Shown in pieces: positions 1 through 37,093 of a stretch of 64,000 nucleotides of DNA. Position numbers and translations under genes: made by a program. The DNA is taken from the IMG/VR virus record IMGVR_UViG_3300042731_004843, positions 1 to 64,000 of that record. One strand, 5' to 3'. The notes under the pieces were generated by a model. That model was not told the origin of the DNA. It was given only the letters and a program-made list of their open reading frames with translations, and did not search any database. Position 1 is the first letter of the stretch. Each line of letters opens with the position of its first letter. This DNA comes from a virus.

Positions 1-2664
1 TACGGCGATACGACCTTTCGAGGCGCGAATGATTTCACCTCGATTGCTGAGCTCCGCCTGAAGATACTGCAGCAGATATCTGCGGCGGAAAAGGACAGCA
101 GCACACGCCGACTATTCGCCCGCAAGACGTTCAACATGTGGATGAACCGGCAGATGGGCAGCCTGGGCAAGCTGGTGACTTTCCGCGGGCTCACCAGGAT
201 CCTGCAGAAGTTCATCTTCCACGAGATCTACCCCAACCCAGCGGCCTTCTACCAGCCTAAGAAGACGGGCCTGAAGAAGAAAAAGGTCTACTCCCTGCGG
301 GTGGACAAGGACCCACGCACCAGAACGTTCATCAATACGATCAAGAAGTTAGAACCAGTGATCAACTCTTTGGTGGACAACCTCAATAAGTGGGGCCAGC
401 TGGGGTTCAGCATTTCCGGCGCACTAACTGCGCTCAGTGTGGGCGGCGCACCGCAACTGCTTCGCACCATAGCCGCCGACTTTGCTGATGCCGACAAGAT
501 CATGCGCTCTCTTATCGGGGGTGGCACACCAAAGGGAGTGCCCGGTCTATTGCGGGAGACCAGTAGGATAAACTCGGCGCTTCTGAAGGCACACCGGCTA
601 GTGGCCCCGAAGAGACCGTTGCGAACGTCCACCACCATACTGTCTCCAGAACTCCTTGGGTCCGAGGCGCGCAGGAAGGGTGCCGTTGACGCTCTTGGGG
701 AAGCGCAGTCTGCCATCACCGTCTTGCTCGGCATGCGCGTGAGGCGCTCGAAGGAAGTGACCTACGACAAGTTGGACAGGGTGCACAATCAAATACTGCG
801 GCCAGATCTCTGGTTTGCGTCCCCGCCCCGATGCAACGTCCTGTTTCCGGAGCTGTACGGGAACCTGACCTGGCAGCGGAACTTCATGCGCGAGGTATCG
901 CGCATGGAGCTGCAGACCACCAATGAGATCTTGGGTGACGACGCCCTGTTCAACGGCCGTTACTATGCCCCAAACGTAATCGATATGCGTAAGGGTGTGC
1001 GGTTGAGTTCCAGGAAGTTCGGACGCCTGATAATGGCGCATGAGCTGCTGACCGGCATCATCCCGATGTTCGAGAAGATGACCGAGGCCAACCTCTTCGC
1101 CATGAAGGCTCGCCGGGTCAAGTACAAGGGGGCCAAGGTCGGGTACGCGCAAAGGGCGGTAAACTTCCAGTACTTCAAGCACCGCTTCGCTTCCAGGGCC
1201 ATGTCCGCGGCAGGCAGGTTCAACCCTTGGTTCGTGTGCGGGTTCCCGGCGCCGCTTGTCGACAGGCCCATGACGTCAGCAGACCTGCTGACCAGCGGCA
1301 AGCCTATAGCAGACCAACTGGCGGACCTGGACATCGTGCCGGAAAAAGGCCAAACGATAACCAGGGCCACCCTACTGCAACTGCTCGTACCCACCCAATA
1401 CTTTGGGTCCTGCGTACAACTGGTGCACAACGTCAATCAGCAGGGCGGCCAAACCAGTTACCAATTCGCGCAGGCCAGGCTGCATCGTGAAGACACTGAA
1501 TTCTTGGGGGTGGACAAGAAGGTCGTCAACAAGAAGATCGGCACCACCAGGCGTATCAGTGTAGTGGCGGCCCTACCATCTGAAGCACCGAAGACCAACA
1601 ATCGAGGTCCTCGAGGAGGGCGCATAACGTCCGTCCGGGATGTGACTGGCCAGTACCGCAACTCATTCTTGCCGCTGTATGGCGCGTCTAGGGGCACAGC
1701 CAAGGTTAAGGTGGGCACCACCGATACCGTTGCCGCCGCCTTGGGTGTCGGGGAGCAGCAAACCAGCACAGAAAGTTTCAAGGCGTACCGGGTTACAGAA
1801 ACGTTCACACGTCGGGCTCGGGTAAAGATAGACATGCCTATCGAGGAGGCTGTGCGGCCGACATGGATGTGGGACGGGTGGTCCAACCTGAAGATAGGCG
1901 AAACCTACATGCAGATGTTAGGCACCAACTCGATCACGGATGTAGAGGGCATCACGTCCAGGGACCTGCTGTTCGATCTGCTGGACGCGGACTCTTCGGA
2001 GGCCGTACTAGAGGCACGAGAAGGGAAGACGCAGGGGCTCTTGAAGGAGGATGAGGCCGGCGCAGAGTTCCAGGACCGCACATCCGGCACTGGGCAGAAG
2101 AAGGCGCTGGGAGACGACAGGAAGAACCAGAAGCCCAAGGAGGCGCTGGTAGTGTCCGGCACGTCTGTGCAGAGAGCTTCCCACGAGAAGGTGTCCGCCG
2201 ATGCCATCCTGACCATCGAGAAGGAGAGGACCATCGAGAACGCCGTAGACTACTTGGTGAGGGTCTACAGCTACTTGATGCATCGGGGGCTCGATGTGGG
2301 GAACTTCGTACGGACCTACACCTGGCGCCCGGTCGCCACCATGCCGGAGATCTTGGGGTCCGCGAACTTCACCATCCAGGAGAAGACGGCGCTACGGTTC
2401 GTGGGCAACTCCATAGACGAGCTCCAGCTTACGGAGACCCCGGATGGCTACGTAACTTCTGGAACTGAGGGCTTCCACAGCCGTGCATTCGGTGACGTGG
2501 AGGACCTGTTCGCGCTGGTAGACCCCAAAGTACGGAAGATACTAGGGCTGAGCAAAGAAAAGAAGCAGGCTACGGCTAGGAAGCTGGACGTACGGAAACG
2601 CCGGCGGCAAGCCGTCAGGGAGTACGTAGACGAGCTGACGGCTTCCAGAGGCTTGCTGGGATAG
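1..2664 (+). CDS. 5'-truncated large structural protein, possibly baseplate hub (gp27/gpD-like)
   Basis: Frame is open from base 1 to TAG 2664. The segment GRFNPWFVCGFPAPLVD...GSCVQLVHNV..GGQTSY resembles the C-terminal hub fold, and it lies in the tail gene block. Confidence 0.4.
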   Translation, partial: YGDTTFRGANDFTSIAELRLKILQQISAAEKDSSTRRLFARKTFNMWMNRQMGSLGKLVTFRGLTRILQKFIFHEIYPNPAAFYQPKKTGLKKKKVYSLRVDKDPRTRTFINTIKKLEPVINSLVDNLNKWGQLGFSISGALTALSVGGAPQLLRTIAADFADADKIMRSLIGGGTPKGVPGLLRETSRINSALLKAHRLVAPKRPLRTSTTILSPELLGSEARRKGAVDALGEAQSAITVLLGMRVRRSKEVTYDKLDRVHNQILRPDLWFASPPRCNVLFPELYGNLTWQRNFMREVSRMELQTTNEILGDDALFNGRYYAPNVIDMRKGVRLSSRKFGRLIMAHELLTGIIPMFEKMTEANLFAMKARRVKYKGAKVGYAQRAVNFQYFKHRFASRAMSAAGRFNPWFVCGFPAPLVDRPMTSADLLTSGKPIADQLADLDIVPEKGQTITRATLLQLLVPTQYFGSCVQLVHNVNQQGGQTSYQFAQARLHREDTEFLGVDKKVVNKKIGTTRRISVVAALPSEAPKTNNRGPRGGRITSVRDVTGQYRNSFLPLYGASRGTAKVKVGTTDTVAAALGVGEQQTSTESFKAYRVTETFTRRARVKIDMPIEEAVRPTWMWDGWSNLKIGETYMQMLGTNSITDVEGITSRDLLFDLLDADSSEAVLEAREGKTQGLLKEDEAGAEFQDRTSGTGQKKALGDDRKNQKPKEALVVSGTSVQRASHEKVSADAILTIEKERTIENAVDYLVRVYSYLMHRGLDVGNFVRTYTWRPVATMPEILGSANFTIQEKTALRFVGNSIDELQLTETPDGYVTSGTEGFHSRAFGDVEDLFALVDPKVRKILGLSKEKKQATARKLDVRKRRRQAVREYVDELTASRGLLG

Positions 2665-32821: not shown

Positions 32822-33094
32822 ATGCATGAGGCTAGTATGCAGGCGCTTCAAAGTGAGCTGGAGAAAATAGCCAAGACGAAGGGGAGCAGGCGCCTTGCGG
32901 AAGCTATGTTTGGTAGGCTTCGTGCAGCGAGGGGAGGCGGCGTTAAGGGCAGCGAAGTGGGCGCGTTCAGGAAGTTGCGTAGGGCGAACTACGGACCATC
33001 GGAAGCGGCGGGAGCTATCGATAAGGCTAGATGGCGCGGCGATCAGTACGTGAAGGTGCCTGAAGGTTACGGCCATCGCTACATAGATTTTTAG
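32822..33094 (+). CDS. small basic protein with LQSELEKIA tag
   Basis: GGGAG RBS. Confidence 0.6.
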   Translation: MHEASMQALQSELEKIAKTKGSRRLAEAMFGRLRAARGGGVKGSEVGAFRKLRRANYGPSEAAGAIDKARWRGDQYVKVPEGYGHRYIDF

Positions 33095-33436: not shown

Positions 33437-36400
33437 ATGCGACTCAAGACCGCATTCGAGTGGGCGGCGACAGGACCCAACAGGGGTGAGCGCGTACACG
33501 ATGCTCCCGTACTGTGGCGGCCCGGCAAACTGAAGCGGTCGGATTTCCAACCTGCCGCAGGGATCAATCCCGATGTAGCCAGGGGTGTTGCTCGAGAGCC
33601 GCAAGAGAAGGTCTCCATATTCGATGGGGACGGTACCAAGCTGATGCCCCACCTACGCGCCATCCACAAGCTGGGCGGCATCTCTGCCAGTGAAGTGGGG
33701 ATTGAAGACCTGGACGGCTTCAAGACCACCGGCAGGCACTACGCCAGACAGGCGCAAAGGGCCTTTAGCGACAAGCCCGTAGATGCTGGTCCTGGCTACG
33801 GGGCAGACCACGAGAGCAATAGCACGGCCGGAGAAGGCAACGAGCCCGATACTTCAGGGGAAATTCCTATCGAGGATCCGCAGGACAGCACACCTCTGCG
33901 CGGACATCTACGTAATATCAGGGGGTTAAAGAAGCAGGGGGCTGGTGTGCTGTCTGGGGAGCTGCTGGCTGGGCTGCCCAGGATAGATGTCATCGCTGCC
34001 GAGCAACAGCGCCAGCTGCTATCCAGGGCCGTCCACGAGGCCCGTAGCCGCGGCGGGGAGCTCAGAGGGGCCCAGGAGCCCTCAGCTCTACCTCTGGCCG
34101 GTGAGGGGGCTCTAGAGGGCGCTCAGTATGTCAGGCTGTCAGAGGCCGATGTAGACGCCATCAATGCCCGCCTAGCCCGCCAGGCTATGGAGAAGAGTTC
34201 GAGTTGGGATCCGCGGCTCAAATCCGTCTCTGTGACTGGCTGCGTCAAACTGGCAGAGCCGGCGCCCCGTTTGCGCACAAAGCTATTGCCCCACCAAGAG
34301 CGGGTAGTTGAGAAGCTAAAGGGGCGGCCGGGACTGGTAGTGGCTCATGGGTTGGGATCGGGCAAGACGCTGAGTTCCATAGCCGCTGCTGTACAGCTGG
34401 AGCCGGACAGGACCAAGGTACTGGTTCCGGCGTCTCTCAGGGCCAACTACCAGAAGGAGCTGGACAAGCACGTAGAAGGTACCCTGCCCATAGAGGTGGG
34501 CTCTCTACAGGGTGCGGCCGCACGCGGGGAGGTGCCGCGTGCAGACCTACTGGTGGTAGATGAGGCGCACAGAGGCAGGAACCCGCAGTCCAAAACGTAC
34601 CAGATGATCCAAGGCGCCGAGGCCAAGAAGCGCCTGATGTTGACTGCGTCACCTACCTACAACCGGCCGTCTGACGTAGCCACTCTGGTAAACATGGCTG
34701 CTGGCGATAGGGTCATGCCCATGGGTAAGGCCTTTGATGAGCGGTACATCGCGCAGCCCAAGAAGGGTATCTGGGGCCTGCTCCCGTTCTCTAGAAAGCA
34801 GGAGGGCTTGAAGCGCAAGGGAGAGCTCGGCAAGGCTTTGTCGGAGTGGGTGGACTACCACAAGTCTGGGGGCAAGGGGTTTCCAGATGTGATGGAGGAG
34901 CGCCACGCGGTCAAGATGACCAAGCGCCAGACGCAGCTTCACGATGCTGCGTGGGGACAGCTCTCTTTGTTGTCCAAGATGCGTCTGCGCCGCGGGCTGC
35001 CTCCCGACAAGCAGGACCTCTCCAAGATCAACAACTTCCAGTCTCAGACCCGGCAGATCTCCAGTACTGAGTCGCCGTACACTAAGAAGGGGCGGGGCGA
35101 GGTATCTCCTAAGATCGTGAAGGCTGTAGGGCTCCTGGACACAGAAGCCAGGGCGAACCCTGATCACAAGGCGCTGGTCTACTCTAACTACTTGGGCACC
35201 TTGAGAGACTACTCTAAGGAGCTGGAGAAGCGGAAGGTGCCCCACGCCATATTCTCCGGCCAGCAAAAGATGCGGGACCGCAAGCAGATGGTGGAGGACT
35301 ACAACGCCGGCAAACTGAAAGCCCTGCTGGTATCGTCTGCTGGAGGGGAGGGGCTGGACCTGAAGGGCACCAGGCAGGTCCAGGTACTCGAGCCGCACTG
35401 GAACGTAGAGAAGCTGAAGCAGGTGGAGGGCCGGGCCATCCGCCGCGGTTCCCACACGCACCTGCCGAAAGACCAGCAGAAGGTACTGCTGCAGAGGTTC
35501 GAGTCCTATCCACGTGGAGGCATCTTCAGAAAGCGCCGCGGTGTAGAGCAGGTGCTGGGCGACATGGCTGCCAATAAGGAGAGGCTGAACCAGGAGATGC
35601 TGGGGCTGATGGAAAAGAGCGCAGAGCCACCACCCCCAGAAGGCGTCTCCGCCAAAGAGTGGGACGAGATACTGGACAACAAGGCCAGTAAGCCGCGTCC
35701 CCTGCCCGAGGTCATAACCAAGGACCGGCTTCGTGATCCTGTTGTCCAGCCACGCGACCTTATCCGGCGGCAGGAAACCCGGATGGAAAAGAGCGCGAAG
35801 CGCAAGTCCTGTTTTGATGAGTCCGTGAGAATAGCCGTAAAGAACCCACAGCTTACGCTAATGAAGGGGGATCCTTTCAAGGGCTCTGGAGACAGGGCCC
35901 ACTTCTGGTTGGAAGACAAGGACGGAAAGATCACCGACCCTACTGCGGGACAGTACCCGAAAAGTACGAGAGTCTATACGGGTGGACGACCAGTCAGCTT
36001 GAGTAGGAATCGTGATGCAGTAGAAAGAGCTCTGCAGAAAAGAGCATTCAAGCTGCAGGGACAGACCGAAGTGCAAGGCATTCCTGTAGCCATCGAGAAC
36101 CGCAAGGGGTCTGTACGGAAGGGCAAAGATCCGGACGGCAACGAGTGGCGTACCAAGATGCAGAACCCGTACGGGTACATCAAGGGCACCAAGGGAGCAG
36201 ATGGGGAAGAGGTAGATGCCTACGTGGGCCCGGACAAGGAAGCCCCCAAAGCGTTCGTCGTACACCAGCGAGACAAAGAGACCGGTGAGTATGACGAGGA
36301 CAAGGTCATGCTGGCCTTCAAGTCCAAGGCCGACGCCAAGAGAGCCTTTCTTGCACACTACGACAGCCCCAAGTTCCTCGGACCCATCAGTGCGGTACCC

Positions 36401-37093
36401 ATGGAGCGTCTGCGGGAGCTAGTAGAGAGCAAGAAGAGGCTGGTCAAGATCTCTTTCGCCGTGCCGGTTGTAGAGGACAAAGGTTACCAGAAGAAGGTAC
36501 GCCGGAGATTCGATAAACTGACCAAAGCGCTGGCACGTCACGGGGACCCAGTGGGCACAGGGCACAAGAGGATCGTCATCCCCAAGCGTGTTATGAAAGA
36601 GGATGACCTTGTTGGGCAGCTGGGGTTCGTTCCAGTCAAGGTGGCCATCCCGGAGGCCGGGCAGTCCCGCTTTGCCAGTTTTAGGCACCCGGACAATCTA
36701 TTCCACCTGCACGAGCACGGTGATGCGTGGGTCATGCACAAAGATGAGCACCCTGCGTCCACCATGCTGGTGAAGAAGTGGCGTATGGCCAGAGAGGCCG
36801 CTAAGAGCGCCACGGGCAAGAGTCAAGCTGAAGTGAAGGCGGCTCTCAAGGCTACGGGCGGGAAGCTCAAGCCGGTCGGGGATTTCATCAGAGGCCTGCC
36901 GCACGTGGTCACGGAGGGTGTTCCTGGAGCGTACTACTACGCCAAGGGGCAGATCTTAAAGACCAAGGGTATGCGGGAGAGGGTAGAAGAAGCTGTACCC
37001 AACGCGTACAAGCGCCAGGTGACGAAGTGGATAGAGCTAAAAAAGGCCGCAAGTGCCGGCTACGCCGATCTCGGTAGCCTAGTTCAGGAGTGA
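33437..37093 (+). CDS. polyvalent multidomain protein: SWI2/SNF2-like helicase + small Cys-His-Asp domain + phage inorganic-pyrophosphatase-like (InPase) domain
   Basis: HGLGSGKT, DEAH, TASP, GGEGLDL, QVEGRAIR; SCF...AHFWL...DPT; IENRKGSVRKG...YGYIKGTKGADGEEVDAYVGP...DEDKVML. Confidence 0.85.
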   Translation: MRLKTAFEWAATGPNRGERVHDAPVLWRPGKLKRSDFQPAAGINPDVARGVAREPQEKVSIFDGDGTKLMPHLRAIHKLGGISASEVGIEDLDGFKTTGRHYARQAQRAFSDKPVDAGPGYGADHESNSTAGEGNEPDTSGEIPIEDPQDSTPLRGHLRNIRGLKKQGAGVLSGELLAGLPRIDVIAAEQQRQLLSRAVHEARSRGGELRGAQEPSALPLAGEGALEGAQYVRLSEADVDAINARLARQAMEKSSSWDPRLKSVSVTGCVKLAEPAPRLRTKLLPHQERVVEKLKGRPGLVVAHGLGSGKTLSSIAAAVQLEPDRTKVLVPASLRANYQKELDKHVEGTLPIEVGSLQGAAARGEVPRADLLVVDEAHRGRNPQSKTYQMIQGAEAKKRLMLTASPTYNRPSDVATLVNMAAGDRVMPMGKAFDERYIAQPKKGIWGLLPFSRKQEGLKRKGELGKALSEWVDYHKSGGKGFPDVMEERHAVKMTKRQTQLHDAAWGQLSLLSKMRLRRGLPPDKQDLSKINNFQSQTRQISSTESPYTKKGRGEVSPKIVKAVGLLDTEARANPDHKALVYSNYLGTLRDYSKELEKRKVPHAIFSGQQKMRDRKQMVEDYNAGKLKALLVSSAGGEGLDLKGTRQVQVLEPHWNVEKLKQVEGRAIRRGSHTHLPKDQQKVLLQRFESYPRGGIFRKRRGVEQVLGDMAANKERLNQEMLGLMEKSAEPPPPEGVSAKEWDEILDNKASKPRPLPEVITKDRLRDPVVQPRDLIRRQETRMEKSAKRKSCFDESVRIAVKNPQLTLMKGDPFKGSGDRAHFWLEDKDGKITDPTAGQYPKSTRVYTGGRPVSLSRNRDAVERALQKRAFKLQGQTEVQGIPVAIENRKGSVRKGKDPDGNEWRTKMQNPYGYIKGTKGADGEEVDAYVGPDKEAPKAFVVHQRDKETGEYDEDKVMLAFKSKADAKRAFLAHYDSPKFLGPISAVPMERLRELVESKKRLVKISFAVPVVEDKGYQKKVRRRFDKLTKALARHGDPVGTGHKRIVIPKRVMKEDDLVGQLGFVPVKVAIPEAGQSRFASFRHPDNLFHLHEHGDAWVMHKDEHPASTMLVKKWRMAREAAKSATGKSQAEVKAALKATGGKLKPVGDFIRGLPHVVTEGVPGAYYYAKGQILKTKGMRERVEEAVPNAYKRQVTKWIELKKAASAGYADLGSLVQE

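Follow-up and report, generated by a model that had tools for sequence, protein, structure and literature searches.

We analyzed a 64,000-nucleotide stretch of viral DNA (hereafter the window), the first 64 kb of a 108,145-bp IMG/VR virus record (IMGVR_UViG_3300042731_004843; CheckV completeness 58%), and within it a single plus-strand open reading frame (ORF) encoding P0001, a 1218-residue multi-enzyme protein of the phage polyvalent type. The modules of P0001 meet at a short peptide mark of the form K-x-(A/S/G), homologous proteins exchange modules at these marks, and the same motif family heads other late proteins of this phage. By analogy with phage head maturation, we consider it somewhat probable (roughly 55%) that P0001 is packaged in the procapsid and cut at its K-x-small marks by the head protease, which would free the individual enzymes for ejection.

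P0001 comprises, in order, an N-terminal region, a SNF2 helicase, a spacer peptide, a Cys-His-Asp domain, an inorganic pyrophosphatase (InPase), and a His-rich module (Table 1). Pfam places SNF2-rel_dom, Helicase_C, and ResIII matches at approximately residues 285–672, and the scores identify a SWI2/SNF2 ATPase (PF00176, 48.7 bits against a cut-off of 24.9; PF00271, 56.4 bits against a cut-off of 23.5). The helicase carries the motifs GLGSGKT (Walker A) and VDEAH, matches Rad54, Sth1, and Chd1 in the Protein Data Bank (PDB), and is 38% identical to gp217 of Salmonella phage Arash. PF18823 matches residues 871–995 with an E value of 1.4e-43 (148.5 bits against a cut-off of 26.8; profile positions 9–133 of 135), identifying an InPase of the kind found in polyvalent proteins. 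PHROG families bearing this domain are labeled "minor head protein," "virion structural protein," and "DarB-like antirestriction," and the InPase of P0001 also aligns with the C-terminal domain of the phage portal structure 9b41. A prior interpretation of this DNA made without database searches, which we call the sequence-only reading, had proposed a polyvalent protein joining SNF2 and InPase domains; Pfam confirms this, and two further conserved modules are present.

Polyvalent proteins, exemplified by DarB of phage P1, were described by Iyer et al. in 2017 and are predicted to be packaged, injected, and processed into units (PMC5512222). P0001 resembles them in carrying several unrelated enzymatic domains on one polypeptide (the SNF2 helicase, the InPase, the Cys-His-Asp domain, and the His-rich module) and in its late or virion gene setting, and both the SWI2/SNF2 ATPase and the InPase are listed polyvalent components (PMC5512222). 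It is phage encoded, among late or virion genes, within a plus-strand block that encodes very large proteins without family matches; these are probably virion proteins. PHROG and Pfam scans of the 28 ORFs neighboring P0001 came back nearly blank. P0001 differs from the proteins of Iyer et al. in having a short conserved mark at every joint that is shared with head proteins, and in having no DNA methylase partner.

The sequence-only reading listed nine strings of the K-x-[A/S] type as domain junctions, and all nine are present, at the positions it gave, in the one P0001 reading frame. One of them, KKQG, is K-x-G and therefore lies outside the A/S definition. Across homologues, the conserved minimal element at the joints is K-x-(A/S/G), and a fuller form reads hydrophobic-(E/Q)-K-x-(A/S/G). 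At the VKIS site, K and I are invariant in eight of eight close homologues. The QKRA site aligns as EK[KRQT]A/[FY]KLQG in seven of the eight (here and below, a slash marks the junction), where P0001 reads LQKRAFKLQG.

Placement of the sites was assessed on an AlphaFold2 model of residues 19–1218, built on 63 sequences, with a mean predicted local distance difference test score (pLDDT) of 70.8. Three confident bodies are modeled, the helicase (residues 271–743), the InPase (869–1008), and a C-terminal module (1014–1143), together with low-confidence stretches at residues 19–184 (pLDDT <50), 205–240, 254–270, 751–859, 1009–1013, and 1201–1218. MEKSS (251) lies at a helix end ahead of disorder, and VKLA (270) is the last element before the helicase. 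MEKSA (725) forms the C-terminal end of the last, confidently modeled helicase helix and is followed by EPPPP. QKRA (867) sits at a helix end just before the first InPase strand, whereas VKIS (1003) closes the InPase and precedes a low-confidence linker. A separate model of the C-terminal module loses confidence at KKAA (1201), dropping from 93 to 48. KKQG (residues 165–168) belongs to the low-confidence N-terminal part, and LKTA lies outside the modeled range. The listed sites within the model are thus predicted to fall at domain edges or in disordered linkers, and none is predicted to be buried; K-x-A/S/G sites that the sequence-only reading did not list are mostly buried in folds in the same model.

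We compared P0001 with 120 homologues and took clusters of BLAST alignment endpoints as breakpoints. The homologues derive from metagenomes, many from contigs of 160–200 kb, and their architectures are shuffled, with SNF2 domains with or without InPase, DNA ligase, GNAT, NUDIX, P-loop kinase, Peptidase_C39, and Hint domains. In three of them (P0035, P0073, and P0114), a Peptidase_C39 domain stands right after an InPase. Endpoints pile up at residues 271–283, 725–733, 866–872, 1006–1008, and 1198–1207, and the median of each of these five clusters lies no more than 5 residues from a K-x-[A/S] site, a coincidence reached in 0.015% of trials with randomly placed sites (P ~1.5e-4). Placement of the sites at module edges exceeds chance.

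Individual homologues make the same point at the level of single events. P0003 is 77% identical to P0001 over residues 1–727 and 871–1217, with residues 728–870 replaced by an unrelated 137-residue segment; this swap is bounded by the positions of MEKSA (725) and QKRA (867). P0004 and P0005 lack the helicase and read ..IKVAEPPPP.. where P0001 reads ..VKLAEPAP(helicase)..MEKSAEPPPP.., a deletion that runs exactly between two sites. The stand-alone Arash helicase ends in ..ELLDAMTNDG, exactly at the position of ..EMLGLMEKSA in P0001. The His-rich module, present in 20 homologues, is mobile: it precedes the helicase in eight of them and follows the InPase in others. The search for domain swaps that the sequence-only reading had suggested was therefore positive, in that homologues swap, delete, and reorder modules at the sites, and its proposal that new domains can be added there as cassettes is supported by the P0003 swap, the P0004 and P0005 deletion, and the mobile C-terminal module.

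The association between marks and module edges extends to distant homologues, for which the closest relatives were excluded from the helicase-end and InPase counts. Past the last helicase helix, K.[AGS] occurs within 20 residues in 54 of 57 distant proteins that continue for at least 60 residues, compared with 12.3 ± 3.1 in random windows (maximum 27 in 2000 trials). Proteins that terminate with the helicase (n = 32) end 2–30 residues past this helix, and only three contain the tripeptide. On the other side of the domain, 58 of 60 internal helicases have K.[AGS] no more than 22 residues upstream of LLPHQ (random, 13 ± 3.2). The mark precedes the InPase in 21 of 31 distant homologues against 6.8 expected, typically as ..EK[KRQT]A[FY]KLQG.

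Modules that stand at the N terminus of their protein follow the same pattern. Some N-terminal helicases and InPases have leaders ending in K-x-A (MNLQAIAALVDELEKVA.., MSRLLPKIA..), and others start right at the site (MATLKTKLLPHQ). Among the helicases, the leader ends in the mark (MNLQAIAALVDELEKVAEVATPLLPHQQ, MLNHGYMSSFFGELAKTAKVVTKLLPHQQ) or the protein starts at the same position (MATLKTKLLPHQE); among the InPases, mini-leaders read MSRLLPKIA/QEHKLQG and ..SVLKTA/QEHKLQG. On the far side of the InPase, many homologues continue with K[IL][SAG] and then a full leader-like tag, such as AFFSELAKIGA, YRAMLDEIM..QKEA, or AFFQELEKTG. As the sequence-only reading implied, the junction mark and the N-terminal FFxELEKI[A/G] leaders are members of one motif family, with leader-like tags found between the modules of homologues.

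These leaders are not confined to P0001 and its relatives. At least eight late ORFs of the genome have E[LI]EKI[AG] leaders within 30 residues of the N terminus, and a stand-alone example lies a short distance upstream of P0001 (Table 1). A short leader is shared by unrelated cargo, as in T4-type systems, and homologues have this tag at the head of their helicase and InPase modules. The major capsid protein (PHROG 2522), encoded outside the window at G000 82377-83498 (L020:18377-19498), belongs to a family whose N terminus reads ..VLNDLFSQKLG..EGKEKIAEYAG.., and its Arash counterpart reads ..GLVKEAGAAMSAF.. This family has approximately 2000 clusters at E ≤ 1e-5, the 120 best listed being 75–97% identical, which places the phage in a very abundant uncultured clade with genomes of approximately 180–200 kb. 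Among cultured phages, Salmonella phage Arash and Vibrio phages D69, D181, and D148 are the closest to it; Arash shares 28% identity in the capsid protein, 29% in the large terminase, 38% in the helicase, and 35% in a candidate protease described below. The Arash head-module proteins gp220–gp225 contain many [ML][ETD]K[TSQA]A sites, whereas the Arash tail proteins contain few.

Also outside the window, at G000 80069-81454 (L020:16069-17454), is a 461-residue ORF whose product (P0272) is low in complexity and rich in Ala, Lys, and Gln. It bears K-x-A sites reading KTAAAA, EKTATAFVEKLAS, TKEA (twice), and LLEKIA, and is a probable scaffold or core component, likely translated from the internal MEFTLQELVQ. 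We considered this ORF as the protease and rejected it as a low-complexity, scaffold-like protein. A 212-residue ORF (G000 79125-79763) was dropped as a protease candidate as well: it is not similar to Arash gp219, and Atlas gave no lead.

The candidate head-maturation protease is a 681-residue protein (Table 1), proposed on a PHROG label and a profile alignment. Its first ~300 residues are 35% identical to Arash gp222 (tblastn, 3e-40), and 16 of 24 members of its family match phrog_18299, "head maturation protease" (best E 3.6e-8). A statistically weak hhalign comparison with T4 gp21 (E 0.37) pairs NINGDYFP with NRNKRLYP, the invariant His122 with "NH," and the likewise invariant Ser179 (PDVSM) with "PGVSS"; the latter two T4 stretches are those that we take to hold the catalytic residues. 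Conserved K-x-A sites stand on both sides of the candidate catalytic domain (GDMEKAAAFF, MGKTAAP, and GADKTAKVMAKLAS), and a further site, [FLM]EKAAS, follows ~40 residues on within otherwise variable sequence. Judged from sequence, this is the layout expected for autoprocessing. The family has approximately 1700 homologues and no Pfam model, and several members contain inteins (Hint, LAGLIDADG). Sub-threshold Peptidase_S77 hits in two complete 195-kb relatives (L025 G001:C1:1042-4185) look spurious, falling in a beta-helix, tail-fiber-like ORF of 613–622 residues.

The closest precedent for a tag of this kind is found in phage T4, in which a capsid targeting sequence on IPI-III and Alt is removed by the prohead protease gp21 (Mullaney and Black 1996, cited in PMC10052503). 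The two systems are alike in having a short, amphipathic, acidic leader that ends in a protease motif, putative in the present phage, and sits on unrelated cargo, and in that capsid, scaffold, and protease (here the candidate) share the motif. They differ in that the tag described here is also internal, between modules, and the candidate protease is only distantly T4-like. The motifs themselves also diverge: gp21 cuts at (L/I)-x-E and the prohead cut motif of giant phages ends in Glu, unlike K-x-(A/S/G). The giant phages phiKZ (protease gp175) and SPN3US (gp245) offer a parallel to what is proposed here: one prohead protease acts at a short motif on many head and ejection proteins, propeptides are cut at multiple points, the protease cleaves itself, and a virion RNA polymerase is co-packaged (PMC10052503, PMC5694885).

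Packaging of the enzymes themselves finds some parallel in relatives and related families. The Arash helicase gp217 was detected in virion mass spectrometry with 38 unique peptides and 1148 spectra, numbers close to those of the beta' subunit, and its gene adjoins an RNA polymerase subunit gene (PMC10585845). Unlike P0001, it is a stand-alone gene of 472 residues and not part of a polyprotein (OQ632216; PMC10585845). InPase-bearing polyvalent proteins have been placed in virions by Iyer et al. (PMC5512222).

We propose that P0001 is a polyvalent protein delivered by the virion and built from cassettes, each a leader plus a module, with a mark at each joint. It would be co-assembled into the procapsid, where the head protease would sever the joints; the small residue probably occupies P1, or else the bond cut adjoins the lysine. 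In herpesviruses, assemblin sites read (V/L/I)-x-A/S, with Ala at P1 and Ser or Ala at P1', and the assemblin fold is shared with phage prohead proteases. Because assemblin-type proteases cut between Ala and Ser, the cut in P0001 would, by analogy, more likely fall just after the small residue than beside the lysine; assemblin serves as an analogy for the scissile bond only and bears no sequence relation to viral substrates. The freed enzymes would then be ejected with the DNA, upon which the helicase may partner the phage RNA polymerase in the manner of RapA, and removal of pyrophosphate during early transcription may fall to the InPase. Cleavage at the joints is a well-motivated prediction, argued here from related systems and from the presence of the motif on the capsid protein, on the scaffold-like protein, and on either side of the candidate protease domain.

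Several observations weigh against packaging and cleavage of P0001. K.[AGS] is no more frequent in the protein than its composition predicts (26 found, 27 expected; for K.[AS], 20 and 17), the K-x-small motif carries little information, and a weight matrix trained on distant-homologue junctions gave a clear score only for the site at residue 725. Accessibility of that site is uncertain because of its helix-end position. Within the folded helicase, InPase, and C-terminal module, K-x-[A/G/S] occurs at least eight times (residues 442, 476, 550, 890, 919, 934, 968, and 1068). Because half of the matches fall inside folds, the motif as the sequence-only reading defined it is too loose to predict sites; what held of its junction-marker claim is the placement at module edges, and what did not is the motif as such. 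The triple MEKS is likewise weak evidence alone, since some four-residue string occurs three times in 15% of shuffles of P0001 (P 0.15). Assignment of the protease, for which the gp21 alignment is weak, is not firm because Pfam protease models and PDB sequences fail to detect the protein: the S77, S78, S49, and ClpP models match nothing in the record, and the candidate matches no PDB sequence. The Arash virion preparation lists 116 proteins, so detection in it is not a stringent sign of virion association (PMC10585845). Finally, the identified prohead-protease cuts in SPN3US, the best-studied giant phage, all remove N-terminal propeptides, self-cleavage aside, such that internal release of several enzymes would exceed precedent (PMC10052503).

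An alternative that we judge unlikely while taking it seriously is that the marks stay uncut. They would then be retained capsid-targeting or scaffold-binding helices, or linkers left by the fusion of tagged genes, and the protein would be packaged and ejected whole, as reported for the virion RNA polymerase of phage N4. In favor of this view, FFxELxKxA, the complete amphipathic tag, is repeated between modules, and what is conserved could accordingly be a helix for binding; the residue 725 site lies at the end of a confident helix; and, according to Iyer et al., some polyvalent proteins are transferred unprocessed (PMC5512222). The minimal K-x-small element is nonetheless kept even where the helix is missing (MRLKTA, MSRLLPKIA, LLPQEKTA), and stand-alone modules start or stop exactly at the site. 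Multiple copies in scaffold-like proteins, together with sites flanking the candidate protease domain, form a layout typical of substrates and of autoprocessing.

Processing might instead be carried out by an embedded peptidase (the Cys-His-Asp domain or Peptidase_C39), or by a host protease after ejection, an explanation that we find improbable. Its appeal comes in part from the Cys-His-Asp domain, a name used by the sequence-only reading for what we find to be a real conserved domain, with C, H, and D invariant in 17 homologues. A phmmer search of the full library with residues 728–870 yielded approximately 25 proteins matching residues 789–862 at E<1e-3, including stand-alone proteins of 90–110 residues and fusions to InPase (one protein) or P-loop kinase. 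In the alignment of 17 members (A4), the invariant residues C7, H37, and D49 occur in that order, accompanied by invariant Pro and Gly, within the pattern CFF.A ... DTAHFWLED..G.V.DPT. These motifs resemble those of transglutaminase-like cysteine proteases, a likeness that we treat as a lead only. The domain matches no protease family: the 17 members share no Pfam family, the sole InPase hit among them falling in a fused domain; the family profile has no significant PDB match; and a search of the genome with Transglut_core (PF01841) returned nothing at E≤10. A kinship with the Peptidase_C39 domain of P0114 was considered and discarded for want of any similarity.

The Peptidase_C39 domains of P0035, P0073, and P0114 also speak for an embedded enzyme, and Iyer et al. 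proposed that polyvalent proteins are processed by peptidases within their own chain (PMC5512222). In their account, processing is assigned to an embedded zincin-like metallopeptidase (MPTase), which is frequent but not obligatory (PMC5512222); P0001 lacks one, as a Pfam scan of the protein (E≤0.1) found no peptidase family and no zincin-like MPTase. Most mark-bearing homologues are without any peptidase-like domain, and in the set of 120 homologues P0001 alone has the Cys-His-Asp segment. Presence of the mark on the capsid protein, the scaffold, and small leader proteins argues for an enzyme that acts genome-wide.

Two further explanations are very improbable. Translation from internal starts at the three ATG-GAR-AAG (MEK) codons, which would yield nested shorter proteins and make the sites initiation N termini, draws on the Met that begins all three MEKS sites and on an AGGA 8 nt upstream of 35783, but the residue before E-K in homologues is mostly L, I, or Q rather than M, the other six sites have no Met, and neither the ATG at 34187 nor that at 35609 has a ribosome-binding site at a suitable distance. 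Chance, by which K-x-A/S would simply be frequent in a Lys/Ala-rich protein with edge sites picked by eye, fits the unremarkable site count and the tripled four-residue string in shuffles but is contradicted by the breakpoint coincidence and by family junction statistics far outside random windows.

The extent of P0001 and its remaining modules merit brief description. Its start at 33437 is backed by an AGGA 7 nt upstream, and residues 1–69 are ~65% conserved in P0003–P0005; both disfavor the gene call of a public pipeline (P0002, 1149 residues, starting at Met70, 33644). A megablast search of the ORF against phages returned no match. The N-terminal region is homologous only to P0003–P0005 and occurs elsewhere in fragments. 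It contains the motif GD(G/P)TKLMP.LR.IHKL (residues 64–79), found in this region of P0001 and P0003–P0005, at or near the N terminus in P0008 and P0010, internally (~residue 350) in P0007, and at the extreme C terminus in P0006 and P0011. GD(G/P)TKLMP is a second portable short element.

Directly after a K-x-A mark, the spacer opens with a ~20-residue peptide, EPPPP-x-GVS-x-KEWD-x-(I/H)L (35624–35680, residues 730–748), that recurs right after the mark, at differing positions, in P0003–P0007, P0010, P0085, and P0109. The spacer is bracketed by a direct DNA repeat matching at 18 of 20 nt (GATGGAAAAGAGCGC..; 35608–35627 and 35782–35801, spacing 174 nt) that encodes both MEKSA sites, an arrangement that fits cassette gain or loss via recombination at short homology. 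The His-rich module (HLHEHGDAWVMHKDEH) has nine invariant His, Asp, or Glu residues (H41, H88, H90, H92, H99, D101, H103, H154, and E158 in module numbering) and is a candidate metal-dependent enzyme. Fold searches with this module gave no Pfam, Atlas, or Foldseek match, and VIA-align Z scores stayed below 5.

Table 1. Features of P0001 and associated genes. Positions are those of the window unless a G000 coordinate is given; HSP, high-scoring segment pair in BLAST comparisons with homologues.
Feature	Position (nt)	Residues	Strand	Basis or remarks
Whole P0001 ORF, phage polyvalent protein	33437..37093	1-1218	+	
Mini-leader MRLKTA, ending K-T-A (LKTA at residues 3-6, 33443)	33437..33454	1-6	+	KSA/KTA in P0003, P0004
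N-terminal region, with KKQG and the GDGTKLMPHLRAIHKL motif (33626-33673)	33455..34186	7-250	+	Mostly low-confidence or helical
KKQG	33929-33940	165-168	+	Kept as K[RS]A in P0003-5
MEKSS junction	34187..34201	251-255	+	Kept as EKRS in P0003-5; helix end, then disorder
VKLA junction, directly before helicase	34244..34255	270-273	+	HSP starts cluster at 271-283
SNF2-family helicase/ATPase module, GSGKT and DEAH	34256..35608	274-724	+	Pfam, PHROG 62, pLDDT >90
MEKSA junction, C-terminal end of last helicase helix	35609..35623	725-729	+	HSP ends cluster at 725-733
Spacer, starting with conserved peptide EPPPPEGVSAKEWDEIL	35624..35782	730-782	+	Helix 739-751 moderately confident, rest disordered
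MEKSA junction, just before Cys-His-Asp domain	35783..35797	783-787	+	Disordered stretch, pLDDT ~29
Cys-His-Asp domain, uncatalogued family	35801..36022	789-862	+	C, P, G, H, D invariant
QKRA junction, directly before InPase	36035..36046	867-870	+	HSP starts cluster at 866-872
InPase module, polyvalent-protein type inorganic pyrophosphatase	36047..36442	871-1002	+	PF18823; pLDDT ~90
VKIS junction after InPase	36443..36454	1003-1006	+	HSP ends cluster at 1006-1008
His-rich C-terminal module	36476..37036	1014-1200	+	20 homologues; model pLDDT 82.6
KKAA junction and 14-residue disordered tail	37037..37090	KKAA 1201-1204	+	KKAA kept in P0003-5; HSP ends at 1198-1207
90-residue ORF, N-terminal leader ..LQSELEKIA (32855), stand-alone tag example	32822..33094		+	
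Candidate head-maturation protease, 681 residues, outside the window	G000 76994-79039 (L020:12994-15039)			

Polyvalent proteins are widespread in phages and conjugative elements, and how their domains reach separate targets is unsettled. The one published proposal that we found has an embedded metallopeptidase process its own chain. A junction mark held in common with capsid, scaffold, and protease would open another route, in which the head protease does the processing within the capsid; this would also explain the free shuffling of modules at fixed points. Both polyvalent proteins and T4-type capsid targeting with cleavage are known, and release of multiple enzymes from P0001 would extend that pattern. 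A broader and more tentative idea, which we hold to be possible without favoring it, is a clade-wide, portable "address-and-cut" grammar, under which any enzyme placed after an amphipathic helix ending in K-x-(A/S/G) would enter the procapsid and be cut out there by a divergent protease of the gp21 kind. Polyvalent proteins would on this view be true polyproteins, cassettes strung together, and fusion, splitting, or swapping of modules at the marks would leave delivery intact. The analysis supplies a concrete peptide motif and a candidate protease, testable in the cultured relative Arash. If confirmed, the tag would be a handle with which to predict virion cargo in uncultured phages and to load chosen proteins into laboratory phage capsids.

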